Source of the DNA: a virus
Taxonomy: Duplodnaviria; Heunggongvirae; Uroviricota; Caudoviricetes
Virus record (IMG/VR): IMGVR_UViG_2681813269_000007
Direction: 5' to 3' (one strand)
DNA length: 22,505 nt
In this document: in pieces, positions 2 to 21,871 of the stretch
Layout of the letters: each line of letters starts with the position of its first letter
How positions within the stretch are numbered: the first letter of the stretch is position 1
Made by a program: the position numbers and the translations under genes
Notes under the pieces: model-generated
Seen by the model: the letters and a program-made list of their open reading frames with translations, nothing else
Database searches by the model: none
Told to the model about the DNA's origin: nothing

Positions 2-430
2 TACGGCACTAAATCCACGAATAACACCGGGGCGCATACGCACAGTCTGAGTGGCTCTACGGGGTCTGCCGGTGCTCATACTCATGGTAATGGTATTCGT
101 TGGCCAGGAGGCGGCGGTTCTGCGTTAGCATTTTATGATGGCGGTGGGTTCACTTATGTCAATGATTCACAGTATCAAGTAAGCCCGGGGACTTCTTCCA
201 GTAGATCGTATTATCAACGTATTCAGACACAGTCAGCAGGTGCTCATACCCACTCGCTGTCTGGTACTGCAGCAAGTTCTGGCGCACATGCACATACTGT
301 AGGTATTGGTGCGCATACGCACTCGGTTGCGATTGGCTCACATGGACACACCATCACCGTTAACGCTGCGGGTAACGCGGAAAACACCGTCAAAAACATC
401 GCATTTAACTATATTGTGAGGCTTGCATGA
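2..430 (+). CDS. Side tail fibre protein, C-terminal fragment (5' end lies outside the window)
   Basis: Frame 2 is open from the window edge to TGA at 428-430. Translation carries repeated G-A-H-T-H-S / H-x-H motifs and ends ...[18 protein letters not shown], which I recognise as the C-terminal signature of lambdoid/P2-type side tail fibres. Stop overlaps the next ATG (ATGA). Confidence 0.8.
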
Positions 431-1317
431 TTACGCTCATTCTTTCTGCACCAGTAACAGAAATGGCGGAAGCATTTAAGCGGGTATTTGCAAACGCAGA
501 TAATGTGAATATTGTCGGAAAGCCATTTGAAACAATCAGAGAATTTGACTGCATGGTAAGTGCGGCAAATAGTTTCGGCCTGATGGATGGCGGCGTTGAT
601 GCCGCCATTACCGCATTCTTCGGTACTCAGTTACAGTCCCGCGTTCAGAATCATATTCTTCGTGAATATTTAGGCGAACAGCCTGTAGGTTCTGCATTTG
701 TAATTGAAACGGGGCATAATCATCACCCCTGGCTGGTACATGCGCCAACAATGCGTGTTCCGCTGACAATTGACGGAACAGACGCTGTATATAACGCAAC
801 CTGGGCCGCTCTGCTTGCCATCTTTCAGCACAATAAACACGCAACGACAGACAGGAAAATAAAAACTGTGGTATTCCCTGCAATGGGAGCCGGATGTGGT
901 CAGGTGCCGTTTGAAAGTGTTGCCCGGCAGATGAAGCAGGCATGGGATAACTTTAATAAAAAAACAGAATCAATTAACTGGGAATACGCACAATCCCGCC
1001 AGTCGGCAGTATTTGGCACATATGCATACTGTCCGGGTAATTCTGTTTGCCGTTATGCGGATACTAAATATATTGGATGCGGCGATTATCGGACGTATTG
1101 CTCACGTTCCGGGCAGTTCTGTATTAGCCATGTGCATCAGGCTGATGACGTGCTGACTAATAATCGCTCTCGCCCTGATTCGCATACACACCGGTTTAAT
1201 CCAGAAAATCCCGTAGGCAATCTCACCTCTGGCGCACATAGCCACGGAAGTAGCATCGTTATTGGTGCTCCCACCCATACGCTCAATAAACAATATTCTG
1301 TCTCTGATATTAAGTAG
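427..1317 (+). CDS. Macro-domain (ADP-ribose binding/processing) protein with a Cys-rich, His-x-His tail-fibre-like C-terminal region
   Basis: 296-aa ORF with GAGG 5 nt upstream of the ATG. N-terminal ~180 aa carry macro-domain motifs ([17 protein letters not shown] and [14 protein letters not shown], compare YmdB NAANPSLMGGGGVDGAI and VAFPAISTGVYGYP). C-terminal ~100 aa have SHVH, SHTHRF and GAHSHGS motifs like the upstream tail fibre. Confidence 0.6.
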
Positions 1318-1319
1318 AG

Positions 1320-1901
1320 GTGAACATGGATTTTAGAATGACTGAACAACCACGGACCATAAAAATTTATAATCTGCTGGCCGGAACTAATGAATTTATT
1401 GGTGAAGGTGACGCATATATTCCGCCTCATACAGGCCTGCCAGCAAACAGTACCGATATTGCACCGCCAGATATTCCGGCTGGCTTCGTGGCTGTTTTCA
1501 ACAGTGATGAGGCATCGTGGCATCTCGTTGAAGACCATCGGGGAAAAACCGTCTATGACGTGGCTTCCGGCGACGCGTTATTTATTTCTGAACTTGGCCC
1601 ATTACCGGAAAATGTCACCTGGTTATCCCCGGAAGGGGAGTTTCAGAAGTGGAACGGCACAGCCTGGGTGAAGGATACGGAAGCAGAAAAACTGTTCCGG
1701 ATCCGGGAGGCGGAAGAAACAAAAAACAACCTGATGCAGGTAGCCAGTGAGCATATTGCGCCGCTTCAGGATGCTGCAGATCTGGAAATTGCAACGGAGG
1801 AAGAAAACTCGTTGCTGGAAGCCTGGAAGAAGTATCGGGTGTTGCTGAACCGTGTTGATACATCACTATCTCCAGATATCGAGTGGCCAAGTCAACCATA
1901 A
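1320..1901 (+). CDS. tfa: Tail fibre assembly protein (Tfa family)
   Basis: 193-aa ORF with AGAGGTGA RBS. C-terminus ...[22 protein letters not shown] is the conserved Tfa / P2 gpG-type signature. Sits directly downstream of the tail fibre region. Confidence 0.85.
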
Positions 1902-1906
1902 ATCAA

Positions 1907-1929
1907 TATCCCCTGCAATGCAGGGGATA
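1907..1929. terminator. Hairpin between convergent tfa and sopB (candidate bidirectional terminator)
   Basis: ATCCCCTG-caatg-CAGGGGAT, an 8-bp perfect stem, lies between the tfa stop (1901) and the sopB stop (1934). The flanking U-tract is weak. Confidence 0.45.
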
Positions 1930-1933
1930 GTTC

Positions 1934-2899
1934 TTAATTATCAGTAGATTGTTCCTCTAGTAACAACTCAATTCTGCTTAGTATTTCTTTAGATATTTTG
2001 CGGCTATCAATTTTTATAGTTACAAAATTACCTTTATATCTAGCCGTGATCCCTTCCCCATATTTTTTCTCGTCTTTTGTTTTTTCCTCGTCGCCAACCA
2101 GAACAGAGTCAGATAATATTTGTATAATCCGTGAAGCTTCTAAATCCTCGCCGTTTTTTTTAATTGCCAGAAGATGATGAGCAGCATTGCTCATGGCAGC
2201 CATGTTTTTTTTGTAAACCTTAAACAAAGAATCTCCAGCACGAGCTGACAGTTCTCCTGGATGATTGAAGATAGCTAATATATCTTTTGGTAGACCAGCT
2301 GTATTAATACAGCGAGTGATAATATTTCTATCTATATTTTCAGCCTCGGCTAATGCTTTAACGTTACCATCAAAGTCATTTAGCTTGCGTAAGTATCTCT
2401 TTCCTCTTTCGTATGCACTAATAGGCCTATAATCGTTACCAATTTGGGATAACCAATGCATCTGTTCATCGTCGAGATCACCAATTAAGACGCGATAGTC
2501 ACATCCTGTTAATATCGCTGCTTTTCTTCTACGTGAGCCGTCAGCGACTTCAACGATTCCAGATACTTTTCTGGCGAAAGCTGGATTTTGTTGTCCAGAC
2601 GTTAGAAAAGATGGGATTAAATCGGCTAGAGAGGATTCATTTAATAAATCTTGATCGCGTTCATTACCTAGCCATACCATTGTTGCCATTTCAACTTTAT
2701 CTGCGGGAATTGTCTCTAACTTAAAGTTAACATTACGTCCGCATACTGGCAAAGTTATGCTGTTACCGGTTAATGAACTCAGTTGACGTTTTAAATCACC
2801 AACCATAGGTGATACGGGCTGATGTTCAGGGGCATGATGATTATTACTCATAATGCGATTAATATCTGGAGCATTTTTTAGAAGAGAGCGCTGTTTCAT
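1934..2899 (-). CDS. sopB: Partition protein SopB (ParB family, centromere-binding)
   Basis: 321-aa ORF colinear with F-plasmid SopB as I recall it (ITLPVCGR, WxGNERDQ, DLIPSF, PAFxRxVSG, IADGSRRRKAA, DYRVLxGxLDDEQM, GNDYRPxSAYERG, CINTAxLPK, HPGELSAR). Start overlaps the sopA stop. Confidence 0.9.
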   Translation of the reverse strand: MKQRSLLKNAPDINRIMSNNHHAPEHQPVSPMVGDLKRQLSSLTGNSITLPVCGRNVNFKLETIPADKVEMATMVWLGNERDQDLLNESSLADLIPSFLTSGQQNPAFARKVSGIVEVADGSRRRKAAILTGCDYRVLIGDLDDEQMHWLSQIGNDYRPISAYERGKRYLRKLNDFDGNVKALAEAENIDRNIITRCINTAGLPKDILAIFNHPGELSARAGDSLFKVYKKNMAAMSNAAHHLLAIKKNGEDLEASRIIQILSDSVLVGDEEKTKDEKKYGEGITARYKGNFVTIKIDSRKISKEILSRIELLLEEQSTDN

Positions 2900-4065
2900 T
2901 ATTCGTTCTCCCAGCGAGGTTTTATTAGATCATCAAAAATTTCTCGGCAAACAGGGTCCCATATAGAAACAGCATTTCTCCATGCATTCAATGTTGAACG
3001 TTGGTTTGCTGCTTGTTCAAATACTGTTCTCATTTTTATCTGGCCTTTACCTACTTCATCGGTAACGCGTACAACCTGACGTAATACCATTGATCCCCAT
3101 GTATTTCTTATTTGTTCTTCCATCCATCGTGATTGATTCCCTGTAGTGAGACTATATTTAGTCAGAAGTAAGCGAACGGTTGGCTCAAATCCACCTAGGT
3201 CAACGCTTTCCAATAGATCGAGAAGCATTGTGAAAAACTGTAGAACAGAAGCGTAATCAAATAATTCTGCAGGTGTAGCAACAACAATAACGTCAGCGGC
3301 ACAAACAACGTTAATGGTTCCTGTACCGAGGTTCGGAGCACTATCTATAACGATAACATCGTAGTTATCCCAAACTGATTCAATAGCTGCGCGCAGCATA
3401 AGGTGTGGAGGATGAGGCAATTTACCCTGAGCATGATATTGCATGAGATCTGTTTCTATACGATGTAAAGCTAGGCAGCTAGGGATAATGTCTAGCCCAG
3501 GCCAACATGTTGGCTTTATAGCATATTCAGCGTTATCGCGTTCTCCTAAGTAAAATGGCAGTAAAGTATCCTCGGCATGGATATGTAAATCAGGAACATA
3601 ACCGTGATACATAGAGGCCGTGCCTTGAGGATCGTTACCTTCAACCAAAAGAACACGATGACCTTGTAATGCTAACCATTGAGCTTGATGTACCGCAGAC
3701 GATGTTTTATAAACGCCGCCTTTGTGTGACATAACGGCAAGCGCAACAGGGTTTTTATCTTGTGGTCGTTGGTTTGGGTTGCCAAAAACTGCTCGCATAC
3801 TGTTGATTTGATCTATGGTATAACCAGCACGACGTTCAATTCTTCCTCTCATTTCAAAGTCAGGTGCAGGTAAACGCCCGCTCTTCTCAGCATCTCTAAT
3901 TGCTTGAGGAGTTACACCAATTAAATCTGCTACTTCAGTTATACCCCATCGGCGGGTGATACGCCGAGCTTCAGGACTATCATCACCGAATTGAGCGATA
4001 GCAATTGCTTTGGTCATTTCTTGACCTCTCGTAACACAATCTTGCAATAACTTTTTCAAAGACAT
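2899..4065 (-). CDS. sopA: Partition ATPase SopA (ParA family, type Ia with N-terminal HTH extension)
   Basis: 388-aa ORF with GGAGATGA RBS. Deviant Walker A KGGVYKTS, a long N-terminal extension, and the same length as F SopA. Transcribed divergently from telN. Confidence 0.9.
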   Translation of the reverse strand: MSLKKLLQDCVTRGQEMTKAIAIAQFGDDSPEARRITRRWGITEVADLIGVTPQAIRDAEKSGRLPAPDFEMRGRIERRAGYTIDQINSMRAVFGNPNQRPQDKNPVALAVMSHKGGVYKTSSAVHQAQWLALQGHRVLLVEGNDPQGTASMYHGYVPDLHIHAEDTLLPFYLGERDNAEYAIKPTCWPGLDIIPSCLALHRIETDLMQYHAQGKLPHPPHLMLRAAIESVWDNYDVIVIDSAPNLGTGTINVVCAADVIVVATPAELFDYASVLQFFTMLLDLLESVDLGGFEPTVRLLLTKYSLTTGNQSRWMEEQIRNTWGSMVLRQVVRVTDEVGKGQIKMRTVFEQAANQRSTLNAWRNAVSIWDPVCREIFDDLIKPRWENE

Positions 4066-4086
4066 ACTGTCATCTCCAGCTTGTAA

Positions 4087-4164
4087 CTTTGCTTAATAAT
4101 TAAATCTTTGCTTATTTCTAGCAAATTTGCATAAAAAAGGCAAAGCAAAACGAAAAACGCAAAG
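4087..4164. promoter_or_regulatory. sopAB promoter/operator region with clustered CTTTGC / GCAAAG hexamers
   Basis: At least six CTTTGC or GCAAAG copies (4087, 4106, 4121-4130, 4140, 4159) lie just upstream of the sopA start. CTTTGC repeats are the SopA autoregulatory sites in the F sop promoter. Confidence 0.45.
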
Positions 4165-4352
4165 GCGAATATTTGAGCTAAATCATCTTTTTTTCCCCTC
4201 CCGAAATGCATAAAACGAACAACAATATAATCATAACTAATTGATATTTATGACCTTTCTTAAGAAAGGAAATCATATAAAACTAGAGAAACATGATAAG
4301 AATCATCAATGAGATACGTTTTCTCTATTAGTTCTCCCAACCTTACCAACAT

Positions 4353-4500
4353 AAGAACACAAATAAAGAACATAAAAAACAAGTAATAACACAAACACAA
4401 TAAAGAACATAAATAAAGAATTAAAACAAATATTAAATAAAACAGTACGCAAACTGAGAACATTACATCAAATGAAAACACTAATCAAGAACATAACGAA
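4353..4500. repeat. AT-rich array of AAGAACA(T/C)AA direct repeats next to telO
   Basis: AAGAACA occurs at 4353, 4366, 4403, 4487 and as GAGAACA at 4456. The 13-mer ATAAAGAACATAA is exact at 4363-4375 and 4400-4412. All copies are on the sopA side of the palindrome. Confidence 0.5.
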
Positions 4501-4542
4501 ACATAATCACCCATTATACGCGCGTATAATGGGGAATTATGT
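4501..4542. other. telRL / telO telomere-resolution site (protelomerase target palindrome)
   Basis: ACATAATCACCCATTATACGCGCGTATAATGGGGAATTATGT has dyad symmetry centred between 4521 and 4522. The central 24 bp (4510-4533) are a perfect palindrome containing TACGCGCGTA; two mismatched pairs separate it from 7-bp matched outer arms. It lies between sopA and telN, as in N15. Confidence 0.85.
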
Positions 4543-4712
4543 GCTGATTTTCAGAACAAAGTCAAGGAACAAATTTTAACGTTCCGACATTGTGTTTTTA
4601 TTTATTATCTGTTATTGCGTTCTGTTAGTTTGTGCCTAAGTTAACGCGTTATTAGTTATCTTATTCTCAAATTGTGTTACGATAATCCGAGCGGATAATC
4701 AGGAGAGGAAAG

Positions 4713-6626
4713 ATGAGCAAAGTAAAAATCGGTGAATTAATAAACTCACTTGTTAGCGATGTTGAGTCAATAGATAACTCTGACCGTCCTCAAGGGGAGA
4801 AAACAAAAAAAATAAAGGCTGTTGCATTAAAATTTAAAAATGCATTATTTAATGACAAGCGAAAGTTTAGGGGGAAAGGATTAGAAAAAAGAATTACAGC
4901 CAACACATTCAATGCCTATATGAGCAGGGCCAGAAAACGGTTTGATGATAAACTTCATCATAGCTTTGAAAAAAATATACATCGCCTATCTGAAAAGTAT
5001 CCTTTATATAATGAGGAGCTATTGTCATGGCTTTCTCTACCTGCTGCCGATATTCGCCAGAGAATGTCAGCTTTACAGGCAAAATTAAAATTAATTCTCC
5101 CTCTATCAGAAGATTTATCTAATATCAGAATTGGCGATAACAAAAGTCATAATAAGTTATTGAAATTATCAAATAAATATAAAGAGTGGCAATTCGCCAT
5201 TTCTGATTTAACTAGCGATAACTGGAAAGATAAGCGCGATTATTTATATAAATTACTACAGCAAGGATCTGCCTTACTTGAGGAGTTGAATCAGCTAAAA
5301 GTTAACCATGAGATTCTCTATCATCTTCAACTAAGCCCTGCCGAACGTGCATCTATCCAGCAACGATGGGCGGACGTTCTGCACAATAAGAAACGTAACG
5401 TGGTGGTCATTGATTACCCTAAATATATGCAAGCTATTTACGATATTATAAATAGCCCTGCTACATTAAATAATCTAAACACTCGTTCAGGTATGGCTCC
5501 TTTGGCATTTGCACTTGCTGCATTGTCAGGAAGACGAATGATTGAGATTATGTATCAAGGTACATTTACTGTTTCTGGTAAGTATACCGTTGATTTTTTA
5601 GGCCAAGCTAAAAAAAGAACTTCTGATGATATAACCAGAAAAATATATACATTATGCGAAGCAAAAACATTTGTTTATTTAATAAATGTACTTCGCTCAT
5701 GCCCAGCAGCATCTGATTTTGATGATGTCGTTAAAGGTTATGGAGATAACGATACACGCTCTGAAAACGGACGTATTAATGCCATATTAGCAAAGGCTTT
5801 TAACCCGTGGGTTAAATCATTTTTCAAAGATGACCGCCGTGTTTATAAAGATAGTCGTGCTATTTATGCCCGTATTGCGTATGAAATGTTTTTCCGCGTA
5901 GATCCTCGTTGGAAAAACGTAGATGAAGATGTTTTCTTTATGGAAATTTTAGGCCATGACGATGAAAACACTCAATTACACTATAAGCAATTCAAGCTGG
6001 CCAACTTCTCAAAGACATGGAGGCCAAATACTGGAAACGAAAATACCAGGCTGGAAGCATTGCAGCAGCTTGATGACGAAATGCCTGGATTCGCCAGAGG
6101 AGATGCCGGGGTTCGTCTGCATAACACAGTTAAGCAGCTGGTAGAGCAGGACCCCTCTATAAAAATCACGAACAGCACTCTAAGAGCGTTCAAATTTAGC
6201 CCAACAATGATTAGTCGATACCTGGAATTTGCTGCTGATGCTCTGGGGCAATTTGTTGGCGAAAACGGACAATGGCAACTGAAAATAGATACTCCAGAAA
6301 TCGTTATGCCTGACGAAGAAGAACTGGAAGCAATACCTGAACTGGCGGATGAATTATCAGAGGATGACGATCTGGATGACGACGAAATTGAGATAGAGGA
6401 AGAGGAAGAGGAAGAGGAAGAGGAAGAGGAAGAGAGCGTAGAAGAACAGCAACCGCCTGCACCTTCTTCGCCTGTATCTAAGCCGGTATTTAAGCCGGTG
6501 AGAAATATTGGTGATGGCTCATACGTTGTTGAGTTTCATTATAATGGCCAGAATTATGCGTGGTCCGGCAGTGCAAACAGCCCCATGTCAGCAATGCAGT
6601 TAGCATGGCTGACATATTTCGGTTAA
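4713..6626 (+). CDS. telN: Protelomerase TelN (telomere resolvase, tyrosine-recombinase-like)
   Basis: 637-aa ORF with AGGAGAGG RBS. The N-terminus MSKVKIGELIN... and overall colinearity match N15 TelN (about 630 aa) as I recall it. An acidic C-terminal tract precedes the conserved tail. Confidence 0.92.
   Translation: MSKVKIGELINSLVSDVESIDNSDRPQGEKTKKIKAVALKFKNALFNDKRKFRGKGLEKRITANTFNAYMSRARKRFDDKLHHSFEKNIHRLSEKYPLYNEELLSWLSLPAADIRQRMSALQAKLKLILPLSEDLSNIRIGDNKSHNKLLKLSNKYKEWQFAISDLTSDNWKDKRDYLYKLLQQGSALLEELNQLKVNHEILYHLQLSPAERASIQQRWADVLHNKKRNVVVIDYPKYMQAIYDIINSPATLNNLNTRSGMAPLAFALAALSGRRMIEIMYQGTFTVSGKYTVDFLGQAKKRTSDDITRKIYTLCEAKTFVYLINVLRSCPAASDFDDVVKGYGDNDTRSENGRINAILAKAFNPWVKSFFKDDRRVYKDSRAIYARIAYEMFFRVDPRWKNVDEDVFFMEILGHDDENTQLHYKQFKLANFSKTWRPNTGNENTRLEALQQLDDEMPGFARGDAGVRLHNTVKQLVEQDPSIKITNSTLRAFKFSPTMISRYLEFAADALGQFVGENGQWQLKIDTPEIVMPDEEELEAIPELADELSEDDDLDDDEIEIEEEEEEEEEEEEESVEEQQPPAPSSPVSKPVFKPVRNIGDGSYVVEFHYNGQNYAWSGSANSPMSAMQLAWLTYFG
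6396..6431 (+). repeat. Perfect (GAGGAA)x6 in-frame hexanucleotide tandem repeat inside telN
   Basis: Six exact tandem GAGGAA units encode the poly-Glu run in the TelN C-terminal acidic linker. Confidence 0.9.
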
Positions 6627-6797: not shown

Positions 6798-7580
6798 CTA
6801 TTTATTGGTGATTTCTGCTGGCTTTAGCTGCGCGGATAACTGCTCAAGTTTTTGAACTGCCAGTTCAAAATGCGCGGGTAACGCCTTTTCCAGATCAGAG
6901 TTAATATCGGTGATGGGTAAATCACCACACGACATACTCCGCCTACCCCCACGAACAACATCACGCAACAACTCTCGTTCATACGTGCGCATGTTCCCCA
7001 ATGCCGACTCAGCAGCCGTCAAAATCCGGCGCAGTTCTGCCGTAATTGCTGGCAAATCATCAACCGTTATGGGGTTCGGGGATGGATTACGACACGCCCG
7101 ACGCAAAGCTAACCATACACCGCTAATCCAGGCATTTCGGTACTGAAAACTTTGTGCTATATCGTTAATCAGCCCTCGCAGATACTCTTTCTGCCTCCAG
7201 TTCAACGGCTCCGCTGCTCGCATTGGCTCAGGCTCGATGTAAACGTACTCTCCATTTTTGCGAATAGAGGGCAAGACTTCGTTCGTTACCCATTTGCGAA
7301 ACCGCCAAGCTGTTGTGCCTTGCTTCACCGCGTCACGGCAGCGGAGGATCAGGGTGTATAGACCTGACTCTGAAATAATATTTAGCTTTTGCTCTCCGCC
7401 AGGGGTGTAACTTAAAGTTACACCCTTTTCATCCTCATCCAGAGACATTAGCGCCTTCCGGGAATTAACGAGTCTTAAAGCATCACATACATCCTTAGCC
7501 ACAAACCACGGCTCACCGTTAATCATCACTACACGAACCTGATGCTCTTCCTGAAAGGAAAAGACTGCTAACGCGCTCAT
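6798..7580 (-). CDS. Phage antirepressor with Bro-N-like N-terminal domain
   Basis: 260-aa ORF. The N-terminus (FQEEHQVRVVMINGEPWFVAKDVCDALRL...) fits the Bro-N / KilA-N antirepressor fold. Start overlaps the stop of the upstream small ORF. Position matches the N15 anti-immunity locus. Confidence 0.7.
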   Translation of the reverse strand: MSALAVFSFQEEHQVRVVMINGEPWFVAKDVCDALRLVNSRKALMSLDEDEKGVTLSYTPGGEQKLNIISESGLYTLILRCRDAVKQGTTAWRFRKWVTNEVLPSIRKNGEYVYIEPEPMRAAEPLNWRQKEYLRGLINDIAQSFQYRNAWISGVWLALRRACRNPSPNPITVDDLPAITAELRRILTAAESALGNMRTYERELLRDVVRGGRRSMSCGDLPITDINSDLEKALPAHFELAVQKLEQLSAQLKPAEITNK

Positions 7581-7810: not shown

Positions 7811-8137
7811 GCAGCCACCTCGCGCACCGGAATACGGGCAGACAATACCAGGACAAACCGGCTGGCGAACTGGCGACGAGCTTCCCGTTCAGATGACGCG
7901 ATAGTGGAAAGATGATGAATGTGGGACTTTTTGTCTGTGCGAACGACTGCCGCAAATTTGAATTTGAACATGGTATGCACTCCGTTTTATTGGTCGTGCT
8001 ACCTCCAGAGTTGCGAATCTCTTTATTGGTGGTAGCCCAGGCGGGGTTCGCAATACCGGTAAACGAAGAAACCGGCCCGACCGAAGTCAGCCCCACCTGA
8101 GCCACCATAATTCGGATATGCGCAGGTCTATACACAT

Positions 8138-8213
8138 AAAAAAACACGCTGGCGCGTGTTGTGCGCTTCGTTTTGCCAGGATTGCGAAGTCCCGACTGCG
8201 GGATTTACCGCAG
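8138..8213 (-). ncRNA. Candidate small regulatory RNA (c4/cA-like) upstream of the antirepressor operon
   Basis: On the minus strand: -35 TTGACG (8250-8245), -10 TAAAGT (8226-8221), then about 75 nt ending in an intrinsic terminator (ACACGC-GCCA-GCGTGT plus U7, 8159-8138). The predicted RNA has a 5' hairpin CUGCGG-UAAAUC-CCGCAG. No convincing ORF in the region. Confidence 0.3.
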
Positions 8214-8263
8214 CGAGGTGACTTTACCTCCAAAACGACGCACACGTCAATAATTTGCAAAGA

Positions 8264-16477: not shown

Positions 16478-17077
16478 GTGACTAATCAGATTATTTACGA
16501 CAGGAAACGGTCTGATGTAATGATTGACCTTGAAACAATGGGTACTAACACATGTGCTCCAATTGTTTCTATCGGGGCAGTGTTTTTTTCTCCAGAAAGT
16601 GAGGAATTAGGTCCTACTTTTTATGTGCCAGTGAATCTCAGAAGCTCGATGTTGAATGGTGGTGTCGCCGATGGTGATACCATTTTATGGTGGTTGAAAC
16701 AGAGCAAGGAAGCCAGAGCCGCAATTTGTACTAATGATGCCCTTGATATTAAGGATGCACTTTTTGAATTATCACACTTTATTACTTGCCATGCATGTAA
16801 TTTAAAAAAATTGAAAGTATGGGGAAATGGAGCAACATTCGACAATGTAATTTTACGCGGTGCTTATGAGCGCGTTGGCTTAGCCTGTCCGTGGGAATAT
16901 TTTAATGATCAGGATGTTCGAACAATCGTTAATCTTGGTCAGTTTATTGGTTTCAATTCTAAAAAAGATATGCCATTTGATGGCGAACGACACAATGCCC
17001 TAGCTGATGCTATTCATCAGGCTAAGTATGTATCCGCAATTTTCTCCCGTCTCATAAAAGGGAAAGGAGAATCGTAA
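16478..17077 (+). CDS. DEDDh-family 3'-5' exonuclease (DnaQ / RNase T-like)
   Basis: 199-aa ORF with GTG start and GAGGAGA RBS. Exo motifs MIDLET (D-x-E), WGNGATFD, and HNALADA (H-x4-D). Confidence 0.8.
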   Translation: MTNQIIYDRKRSDVMIDLETMGTNTCAPIVSIGAVFFSPESEELGPTFYVPVNLRSSMLNGGVADGDTILWWLKQSKEARAAICTNDALDIKDALFELSHFITCHACNLKKLKVWGNGATFDNVILRGAYERVGLACPWEYFNDQDVRTIVNLGQFIGFNSKKDMPFDGERHNALADAIHQAKYVSAIFSRLIKGKGES

Positions 17078-20659: not shown

Positions 20660-20794
20660 GTGCCTGAAAAGTGGGCGCAGGACAAGTTGCAGCTTGTCCT
20701 GCGGTCAACCCATGCCAGAGCTATAGGCTGAACCTAAAGCCCACCCGCGATGCGCATCGCCGGGTTAGCTTACCCAGGCAAAAAAATAATAGCT

Positions 20795-21871
20795 ATGTTC
20801 AAAACCACTAATATTCATGGCGCACAACTCGTTTGCGCAGATTCTCTGCAATTTATCAAAACCATCCCTGATAACTCGGTCAATTTGATTGCAACAGACC
20901 CACCATACTTCGGCGTAAAGGCTAACGCATGGGATAACCAGTGGGATAGCGATGCTGACTTTTTGGGGTGGATTGACGAATTTTTGGCAGAATTTTGGCG
21001 GATATTGGCCCCTAATGGCAGCCTGTATATGTTTACCGGCTCTCGCCTTGCGTCAAAAATTGAATTATTAACTCGCGACCGTTTCAATGTTCTGAACCAT
21101 ATCATTTGGGCTAAACCCAGTGGTATGTGGCGCGGTTGTCATAAAGAAAGTTTAAGGGCTTATTTTCCTGCTACTGAAAGAATATTATTTGCAGAGCATT
21201 ACGGCGCGTCAGGTTATGCTAAAGGTCAGTCAGGTTATGCTTCAAAATGTGCAGATTTAAGAAAAAATATTTTTTCTCCACTAATTGATGCTTTTTCGCT
21301 GGCTCGCCGTCAGTTAGATATATCAGCCGCAGACATTAATTCAGCGACAGGAAAGCAGATGTGTTCACACTGGTTTTCTTATTCGCAGTGGCGGCTTCCA
21401 TCATTAATTGATTTTAATAAACTATGCGAATTATTTCGCAGGAAGGCAGATTCACTCGGTGTCCCGTGTCCATATCCTTTTAATGTTGATTATTCAGAAC
21501 ATGAAAAGCGTTATAGCGATCTGAAATTGCATTATGAGGAAGTAAAGAAGCAGTATGATGATTTGAAGGCTCAGTATGAAAATTTACGCCGTCCATTTCA
21601 TGTTACTGCTGATGTACCTTATACCGATGTATGGGAGTTTCCTCCTGTGCAATATTATCCTGGCAAGCACCCATGTGAAAAACCTGCAGCGATGATGGAA
21701 CATATTATAAAGAGTAGTTCACGCCCCGGAGATATCGTTGCCGATTTCTTTATGGGATCAGGCTCAACTATTAAAGCTGCGCTGAAGTTAGGACGTCAGG
21801 CAATAGGTATTGAGATTGAGGGCGAACGTTATCTTCAGACAGTTGATGAAGTGAAAAAGTTATTTGAGTAA
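20795..21871 (+). CDS. DNA methyltransferase (amino-MTase, DPPY motif before FxGxG motif)
   Basis: ORF open from 20750; ATG 20795 is preferred because the 20750 ATG sits inside a palindrome. IATDPPY near the N-terminus and FFMGSGST near the C-terminus. No adjacent endonuclease is visible. Confidence 0.8.
   Translation: MFKTTNIHGAQLVCADSLQFIKTIPDNSVNLIATDPPYFGVKANAWDNQWDSDADFLGWIDEFLAEFWRILAPNGSLYMFTGSRLASKIELLTRDRFNVLNHIIWAKPSGMWRGCHKESLRAYFPATERILFAEHYGASGYAKGQSGYASKCADLRKNIFSPLIDAFSLARRQLDISAADINSATGKQMCSHWFSYSQWRLPSLIDFNKLCELFRRKADSLGVPCPYPFNVDYSEHEKRYSDLKLHYEEVKKQYDDLKAQYENLRRPFHVTADVPYTDVWEFPPVQYYPGKHPCEKPAAMMEHIIKSSSRPGDIVADFFMGSGSTIKAALKLGRQAIGIEIEGERYLQTVDEVKKLFE

Follow-up and report, generated by a model that had tools for sequence, protein, structure and literature searches.

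What is a gene for a macrodomain protein doing between the gene of a phage tail fibre and the gene of the chaperone that assembles this fibre? We addressed this question in the virus record IMGVR_UViG_2681813269_000007 (Caudoviricetes), a stretch of 22,505 nucleotides (nt) which was analyzed as a whole and is hereafter called the window. In the window, an open reading frame (ORF) of 296 amino acids (aa) is located at 427-1317 on the + strand, with its TAG stop codon at 1315-1317, between a side tail fibre gene (stf) and the chaperone gene tfa. ADP-ribose (ADPr) is read and erased mainly by macrodomains. We found that this macro gene is a precise cassette insertion between the two fibre genes, and that its product joins a macrodomain with a predicted ADP-ribose pocket to a C-terminal tail in which the histidine repeats of the upstream fibre seem to be imitated at the motif level. 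The features of the locus are the following, with the evidence in brackets.

2..430, + strand: 3' end of a lambda-Stf-type side tail fibre gene, with GxHxH repeats of 9-residue period and a TGA stop at 428-430.
418..421, + strand: GAGG Shine-Dalgarno, 5 nt before the macro ATG, which serves tfa in cassette-free relatives (CP088562, lambda alignment).
427..1317, + strand: macro-domain protein gene, 296 aa, PHROG 2613.
427..1011, + strand: macrodomain, aa 1-195, Ymx7-like (AlphaFold2 (AF2), Foldseek, profile search, ratio of nonsynonymous to synonymous substitutions (dN/dS)).
1012..1146, + strand: Cys-rich linker, aa 196-240 (invariant Cys in 19 relatives; strands of the model).
1147..1314, + strand: variable His-rich tail, aa 241-296 (H-x-H motifs; shuffling test).
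1317..1320, + strand: GAGG Shine-Dalgarno supplied by the cassette, 5 nt before the tfa ATG at 1326 (junction alignment).
1326..1901, + strand: tail fibre assembly chaperone gene tfa (Pfam Caudo_TAP, PHROG 105); its start in the ORF list is GTG 1320.
1907..1929, no strand assigned: strong bidirectional hairpin resembling an intrinsic terminator, at the end of the late tail operon and ahead of the convergent sopB.

The fibre gene upstream is represented by its 142 terminal codons (2-430), its 5' part being located beyond the window start. This part shares 95% nt identity with the 3' end of lambda stf and matches Pfam Phage_fiber (3.3e-9) and PHROG 295, tail fibre (3e-51), with a weak match to PHROG 14717 (E=0.0017). 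Its C-terminal end is common to the fibres upstream of all 11 relatives checked and, in lambda, stf likewise terminates on the tfa start; the fibre gene of the window is therefore complete. As proposed by the initial annotation, the ORF of the macro protein starts on the fibre stop: the ATG (427-429) overlaps the TGA (428-430) in an ATGA at 427-430, and is preceded by GAGG-N5. The same annotation let the ORF end 3 nt before tfa, a distance that becomes 8 nt once tfa starts at ATG 1326. This ATG, and not the GTG 1320 of the ORF list, is most likely the real start, as judged from the translations (MDFRMTEQ... in the window, MAFRMSEQ... from lambda DNA) and from the RefSeq tfa start, which is located 8 nt past the macro stop in three E. 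coli loci. With this start, the 8-nt gap between macro gene and tfa comes with its own GAGG Shine-Dalgarno. The tfa product matches Pfam Caudo_TAP (2.2e-43) and PHROG 105 (7e-98). An Rfam IS009 match at 1669-1867 (+), with 220 bits for a gathering score of 117, is located wholly within the tfa coding region and probably reflects the conserved 3' part of tfa used to define this family rather than a separate RNA gene.

Promoter-like sites were at chance level (4 found for 4.0 expected) and no terminator-like site was detected between stf, the macro gene and tfa, except one weak match at 1097-1117. Since GAGG-N5-ATG is present at both cassette ends, the macro gene is translated within the late tail operon, and these sequence signals characterize it as a predicted late-operon gene, translationally coupled to the fibre and chaperone genes. 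It does not have the organization of a moron, with its own promoter and terminator and a position between operons: we observed an ATGA overlap and an 8-nt spacer inside an operon. A fusion of stf and the macro gene by ribosomal frameshifting was also considered and rejected, as the macro frame holds a stop 6 codons before the ATG and no obvious slippery run was found in the last six codons.

To what extent is this gene an addition to the fibre operon? Seven N15-like plasmids possess the order stf-macro-tfa-sopBA at 97-98% identity, and in four others (CP088562, CP126957, CP088810 and CP055678; 94-98% identical) only the macro gene is missing. In N15-like plasmids that are ~98% identical across the flanking 4.1 kb, the stf stop leads directly to the tfa start. 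The junction of the cassette-free plasmids and of lambda reads ...GCATAATGGCATT..., where the TAA of stf overlaps the ATG of tfa, and the stretch inserted in the window (~0.9 kb, ~429-1325) is located exactly at this point. Since near-identical N15-like plasmids exist without the gene, the macro gene is a precise cassette insertion. The mosaic insertion within the receptor-binding module, between fibre gene and tfa, that the initial annotation had suspected is thus borne out, on other grounds than those first given: the frame change at the fibre junction corresponds to ordinary translational coupling (ATGA, GAGG-N5-ATG), and the comparison of relatives is the real evidence. No foreign base composition was seen, the cassette having 46-49% GC, similar to its flanks. 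The conserved 3' end of the fibre gene and the 5' end of tfa would serve as recombination handles moving the cassette between phages.

We then analyzed the two parts of the protein, whose gene is 100% identical in DNA to that of RefSeq WP_032266298.1 and which belongs to PHROG 2613 (E=5.6e-142), a family labelled as of unknown function. The macro signature of the N-terminal ~180 aa, already noticed in the initial annotation, was confirmed by profile searches, model and structure comparison. Pfam Macro (PF01661) matches aa 44-169 with E=8.6e-19 and 68.1 bits for a cut-off of 22, and matches all 19 relatives as well. The AF2 model has a predicted local distance difference test score (pLDDT) above 94 for aa 1-190 and adopts the three-layer alpha/beta/alpha macro fold. 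Foldseek returned 208 matches in the PDB at E<=1e-3, the 50 best listed all being macrodomains or engineered derivatives of one. The best is 1njr, the yeast ADP-ribose-1''-monophosphatase Ymx7 (E=2e-11, 198 columns, root-mean-square deviation 2.9), followed by MacroH2A, TTHA0132, PARP9, MacroD, Af1521 and DarG domains. A profile built from 76 relatives also ranked 1njr first in the PDB (E=8e-16), with the DarG structure 5m3i at 3e-4.

Residues D41, N48, G55-G56-V57-D58 and G154-x-G156-x-G158 form loops that are invariant in the family and that align with the ligand loops of TTHA0132, macroH2A1.1 and Ymx7; they correspond to the Asp that contacts adenine, the N-x6-GG[VI] motif and the GxGxG loop by which other macrodomains hold ADP-ribose. 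N48 and D58 correspond to the Asn/Asp pair typical of MacroD enzymes. In comparison with seven relatives, the macro part has a dN/dS of 0.02-0.15, showing strong purifying selection. Taken together, fold, profiles and alignments establish a macrodomain of the Ymx7 type whose predicted ADP-ribose pocket appears intact. Ymx7 (YMR087W; PDB 1njr, 1txz, 1ty8) is both the best structural and the best profile match, and shares with the window protein the NS[FY]G..GG.D.A loop, the PT motif, the GxGxG loop and an N-terminal extension ahead of the core macro fold. However, the identity is only ~21%, and Ymx7 is a stand-alone eukaryotic enzyme which, unlike the window protein, has neither a Cys/His tail nor a phage context. 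No NCBIfam equivalog scored above its cut-off, the best being PRK00431 (MacroD/YmdB) with 51.9 bits for a cut-off of 246; by profile criteria, the protein classifies as neither a MacroD/YmdB equivalog, nor a DarG/AdfM-type protein, nor a tail fibre.

The domain is 40-55% identical to many stand-alone proteins of ~200 aa from Chloroflexota, cyanobacteria, Acidobacteriota, others, giant viruses and jumbo phages. As ~50% identity is maintained with cytoplasmic stand-alone macro proteins of many phyla, the ligand is likely unchanged. The neighbourhoods of 73 stand-alone relatives held no conserved gene neighbour: the recurrent candidates were antisense shadow ORFs or reflected lineage-specific synteny, and gave no functional hint.

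The C-terminal 101 aa (aa 196-296) contain 5 Cys and three H-x-H motifs, and we aligned them with those of 19 relatives (62-94% identity). The conserved segment reads AYCPx4C...YIGxGDYRTxCx6CIS..HQ; in these relatives C202, C225 and C232 never vary, and C208 hardly does. The linker (aa 196-240) was modelled as a small beta-hairpin unit (strands 211-217 and 220-225; pLDDT 66-85), has a dN/dS of 0.23-0.29 and likely forms a metal (Zn) site. Beyond it, the H-x-H motifs of the window protein (DSHTH, GAHSH and a degenerate APTHT) are enriched for its composition (shuffling, P=0.002). Relatives carry up to four G-x-H-x-H repeats with a spacing of 9-11 residues, such as IGAHTHTIDIGAHNHAIHTGAYAY, and in five of them the enrichment reached P values of 1.4e-3 or lower, down to 0/20,000 shuffles. 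The fibres encoded just upstream bear the same kind of repeat with the same period, and the comparison identifies the tail repeats as apparent copies of those of the upstream fibre, with a likeness limited to the motif level. The His-rich part has a dN/dS of 0.4-0.94, and the tail evolves fast. In the AF2 monomer its pLDDT is below 50, and a model of the tail alone, computed with 73 family sequences, had a mean pLDDT of 47.

The initial annotation compared this C-terminus with tail fibre tips. The Cys-rich character and the H-x-H motifs were confirmed, in contrast to the fibre likeness, which did not extend beyond the motifs. Pfam Phage_fiber (PF03335) gave no hit for the window protein at E<=10, and matched two of the 19 relatives at E=0.76; BLASTP against the upstream fibre gave E=0.02, so that neither BLASTP nor Pfam detected homology to fibres beyond the motifs. 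At the DNA level, tail and fibre gene share a 12-nt identity (E=0.006 in a tiny search). Pfam and PHROG searches with the tail returned nothing besides PHROG 2613, the protein database showed the Cys/His module in no other type of protein (truncated family members only), and tblastn of the tail against phages found only family members and a remnant in phage SEN34. In the needle of T4 gp37 and lambda Stf, as in the window tail, G-x-H-x-H motifs follow each other at a spacing of ~9-11 upstream of tfa. The HxH motifs of the three chains coordinate iron in T4 gp37. The window tail differs from these needles in that it has no Phage_fiber match and no conserved fibre-type C-terminal end, and in that its repeats come after an enzyme and a Cys4 unit, whereas those of gp37 and Stf come after a long shaft.

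Two relatives illustrate the variation of the tail. Between phage Chuche and the window, a 1-nt indel (AATAATTC vs AATATTC; Chuche locus 4990-5035, window 1290-1326) shifts the stop codon. Chuche-type proteins are of 289 aa and do not have the last 7 residues (YSVSDIK), so the extreme C-terminus is evidently dispensable. In Izhakiella australiensis the tail differs (CGC, CDCGCG and CRCG, then four GxHxH repeats): the sequence is another one, yet it is again Cys-rich and ends in G-x-H-x-H repeats.

Is the association of this gene with the fibre locus a peculiarity of the window? A protein database search returned 1720 relatives at E<=1e-3. The closest ones belong to Escherichia, Salmonella, Erwinia, Citrobacter and Enterobacter and go by the names 'macro domain-containing protein' or 'phage tail protein'. 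Of 5426 complete E. coli genomes, 128 (2.4%) carry the gene, at 109 chromosomal and 22 plasmid places, and in 23 of 25 sampled rows of these matches a tail or tail-fibre gene was located under the match. The Salmonella clusters of the protein collection have hundreds of member sequences. The order fibre-ATGA-macro-tfa was observed in Gifsy-1 (STM2588.1n), the P2-like phage Chuche, an E. coli P2-like prophage and Izhakiella, and also in a lambdoid prophage whose gene is 100% identical and in a 113-kb plasmid with phage tail genes; in SEN4/5 and Erwinia, the tail fibre gene is directly upstream of the macro gene. At all 12 family loci examined, window included, the upstream gene encodes an HxH-needle fibre ending with NYIVRLA; in the 11 relatives, these fibres end with HxH repeats followed by ...TVKNIA(F/Y)NYIVRLA. 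A lambda-type tfa was located downstream at every locus whose downstream sequence was checked. The fibre-macro-tfa module was thus found in sipho-, myo- and phage-plasmid genomes.

The Gifsy-1 protein STM2588.1n is 70% identical to the window protein over aa 1-260 and is encoded in the same fibre-macro-tfa order with the same overlapping junction; in Gifsy-1 and PHROG 2613 members only the His-rich tail differs, by the number and spacing of its G-x-H-x-H repeats. The family is already named in databases, and the Gifsy-1 record notes the Macro domain. No data backing the name 'phage tail protein' of PHROG 2613 members were found, and the literature searched held no study of the family, of its function, or of any macro gene in the fibre-chaperone slot.

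Several other loci were observed in these searches. In Salmonella phage SEN34 (locus 4001-4177), only the Cys-rich piece is left (aa 184-242, 61% identity), downstream of an O-acetyltransferase gene which itself comes after fibre and tfa; this suggests a decayed macro cassette. Izhakiella australiensis carries three fibre-macro-tfa copies in one genome, two of them at contig ends. Microcystis phage Mae-JY35 (locus 3935-4492) encodes a tail-less macro protein of PHROG 2613 (185 aa), whose gene, with 4-nt overlaps, is located between a virion structural gene and genes of DNA-ejection and 'released upon infection' PHROGs. The macro proteins of Noxifer (locus 4983-5630) and P106B (locus 3905-4453) bear the labels 'tail protein' or 'tail assembly-like protein'; we discarded these jumbo-phage labels as transitive annotation, the genes being located among small hypothetical genes, and the name seems to have been passed on through homology from the enterobacterial family. 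A contig of the metagenome-assembled genome 'Bacillota bacterium OH_SDB_141' has an E. coli-type fibre-macro locus (87% protein identity) and is probably a mis-binned enterobacterial prophage contig. Lastly, a predicted protein of 463 aa from a Logan assembly, combining actin-like/StbA plasmid-segregation domains with a macro domain (93% identity), is likely a chimera of assembly or gene calling.

What, then, would a macrodomain do at this place? We tentatively favour, at well below even confidence, a late, cytoplasmic ADP-ribose-processing enzyme of counter-defence, trimerised or tethered by the fibre chaperone system. The macro protein would be made in the cytoplasm alongside the fibre and Tfa, and would act while the fibres fold. 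Through its tail, the protein would take part, as client or partner, in the trimerisation of the fibre by Tfa and metal; it may form a short trimeric stalk of its own or dock on a fibre-Tfa assembly intermediate. The macrodomain would bind or hydrolyse an ADP-ribose derivative, such as an ADP-ribosyl adduct, Appr-1''-p, O-acetyl-ADPr or an ADPr signal derived from TIR or Sir2 proteins, and this processing would blunt a host immunity based on NAD+/ADP-ribose and triggered by the appearance of late structural proteins.

By analogy, the literature may support such a mechanism, indirectly. A survey of phage macro genes, found in only ~1% of siphoviruses, predicts that those in morphogenesis clusters counter NAD+/ADPr-based immunity (Iyer et al., 2022; PMC9503650). 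Like the window gene, the genes of this survey are co-transcribed with structural genes, and the homologue of cyanophage Mae-JY35 fits this picture; unlike the fibre locus of the window, the survey concerns head packaging and uses the term 'tail fiber' 0 times (PMC9503650). In type II Thoeris, whose signal is His-ADPR, sensitivity is set by the alleles of side fibre and chaperone (bioRxiv 10.64898/2026.06.04.730250). Several points weigh against the cytoplasmic counter-defence enzyme. The Thoeris precedent concerns Pseudomonas podoviruses that are unrelated and have another fibre type (bioRxiv 10.64898/2026.06.04.730250), the literature searched yielded no data, whether biochemical, proteomic or genetic, on any member of the family, and no defence system was linked to the macro gene in this analysis. 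Trimerisation and dependence on Tfa are suggested by the resemblance of motifs and by nothing else; the tail has no Phage_fiber match and was not modelled as a monomer (pLDDT <50), and its high dN/dS could merely mean low constraint. Finally, late expression comes too late for early-acting defences.

A virion-borne accessory, in which the HxH tail would fix the protein to the tip of the side fibre or to the fibre-bound Tfa, appears unlikely, if less so than the explanations that follow. Each fibre would then bear three macrodomains, as structural decoration or as an enzyme carried to the surface of the next host. The constant location of the gene between fibre and chaperone, a translational coupling suited to stoichiometry, a tail that mimics the repeats of the partner fibre type and a C-terminus that evolves fast, as receptor-binding tips do, are in line with it, as are the predicted virion packaging of phage macro genes (PMC9503650) and the cyanophage homologue encoded among virion and ejection genes. 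However, fibres attach through their N-termini, whereas the N-terminus here is the enzyme, lambda-type Stf/Tfa pairs occur without a macro gene, and the pocket is ~50% identical to those of cytoplasmic enzymes. Proteomic data were looked for and none were found, the SEN4/5 paper being without virion proteomics. Side fibres remain outside the cell. They are not injected, in contrast to the intracellular location of ADP-ribose ligands, and the injected protein considered by the initial annotation is for this reason hard to reconcile with a fibre-linked one.

We regard as rather improbable that the gene is a passenger, or a gene of benefit to the lysogen: a captured macro enzyme of housekeeping type, kept between two recombination handles, whose Cys/His tail would be a largely unimportant remnant of fibre sequence. 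Such a gene is expected to be rare, as observed in E. coli (2.4% of genomes), and the stand-alone relatives have no conserved neighbours, like generic metabolic genes. The tail dN/dS of up to 0.94, the loss of the last 7 residues in Chuche by a 1-nt indel and the clustering of morons such as O-acetyltransferases beside tfa point in the same direction. In contrast, the macro gene lacks its own promoter and terminator, its position is strictly constant across unrelated phage types, and its macro part is under strong purifying selection. Moreover, the Cys vary little or not at all, and G-x-H-x-H motifs persist across genera, even after the replacement of the tail in Izhakiella.

We are equally doubtful of a more elaborate version of the counter-defence enzyme, in which the macrodomain would be built into the fibre system, its tail co-assembling with or docking on the HxH needle or the fibre-Tfa complex, as a 'trigger-linked antidote'. 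If true, an ADP-ribose hydrolase or sponge would be placed where host sensors of the TIR/Sir2 type recognise folded fibre-chaperone complexes, the antidote would travel with the trigger at each exchange of fibre tips, and this would be the first macrodomain shown as part of tail-fibre assembly.

An enzyme directed against DarT, as also suggested by the initial annotation, would be a mimic of the antitoxin DarG that strips DarT-type ADP-ribose from phage DNA; it is disfavoured by our results and we consider it very unlikely. It has an experimental precedent: AdfM of PhiKZ (gp104) is a phage macrodomain of counter-defence shown to remove DarT2 ADP-ribose from DNA (PMC13309987), N48 of the window protein aligns with its catalytic Asn, and DarG is among the Foldseek matches (5m3i, E=3e-6, rank 23). 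However, in the profile search the protein is Ymx7-like (8e-16) and not DarG-like (3e-4). Its similarity to AdfM is not significant (best BLASTP segment shown, E=2.0; hmmsearch, 1.1 bits, below the inclusion threshold), and in PhiPA3 its relative is gp271, whereas AdfM is gp108. In the motif alignment, the catalytic Lys of FPTK (K80 in T. aquaticus DarG2, K78 in AdfM) corresponds to Met109, which is nearly invariant across the subfamily within APTMRVP. AdfM also enters the phage nucleus, acts on phage DNA and has no link to fibres (PMC13309987), unlike the window protein, whose late-operon expression and fibre-like tail would make no sense for a DNA repair enzyme.

The least probable of the functional alternatives, for which we see very little room, is an extracellular module that binds or modifies receptors, such as a macro-fold esterase or a binder of ribose-phosphate or of an O-acetylated surface glycan. 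The gene is indeed part of the receptor-binding module, some macrodomains are O-acetyl-ADP-ribose deacetylases according to database names, and O-antigen acetyltransferase morons are located nearby in some relatives. Against this, the family shows no variation at the residues that bind adenine and diphosphate, and the nearest relatives are cytoplasmic proteins from unrelated phyla. We also know of no macro-fold receptor-binding protein, which we counted against it. The possibility that an ordinary fibre domain was broken by a sequencing frameshift, named in the initial annotation, has the overlapping stop and start in its favour and nothing else, and is refuted by an upstream fibre that is complete and ends on the conserved C-terminus, a stop in the macro frame 6 codons 5' of the ATG, the same junction in the relatives examined at the sequence level, full-length matches in 127 complete E. 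coli genomes, and residues 1-195 that are a macrodomain and not fibre sequence.

The rest of the window carries sopB/sopA, a TelN-type protelomerase, a RepA-like primase-helicase, a CB-like repressor, Q and a C4 antisense RNA. The genes sopB, sopA and the TelK/TelN-type protelomerase (637 aa, four Tel domains) are located at 1934-6626 and show that the window belongs to an N15-like linear plasmid prophage. The partition genes adjoin the tail operon, the hairpin at 1907-1929 being the sole separator. The C4 antisense RNA (8025-8112, - strand, 82 bits) and an isrK Hfq-binding RNA (8139-8214, - strand, 53 bits) are upstream of a Bro-N domain gene (6798-7580, - strand), a layout that resembles the antisense-controlled antirepressor module of the P1/N15 type. 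Downstream of the Q antiterminator gene, we observed genes for an Rv2179c-like 3'-5' exoribonuclease (16478-17077, + strand, 9e-68) and an N6/N4 DNA methylase (20750-21871, + strand, 1e-46).

NAD+/ADP-ribose chemistry underlies many anti-phage systems, among them DarTG, Thoeris, Sir2 and TIR NADases. The family described here is widespread in enterobacterial prophages, including the model prophage Gifsy-1, and is bound to one precise slot between fibre and chaperone in unrelated types of phages, with a tail that imitates the fibre. If this tail tethers the enzyme to the fibre-chaperone complex, the exchange of receptor-binding modules would be linked to counter-defence, and Gifsy-1, phage Chuche and the N15-like plasmids would be tractable systems in which to test it. 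If the gene is a mere passenger, it still shows that the conserved 3' end of stf and 5' end of tfa are handles that spread cargo between phages.

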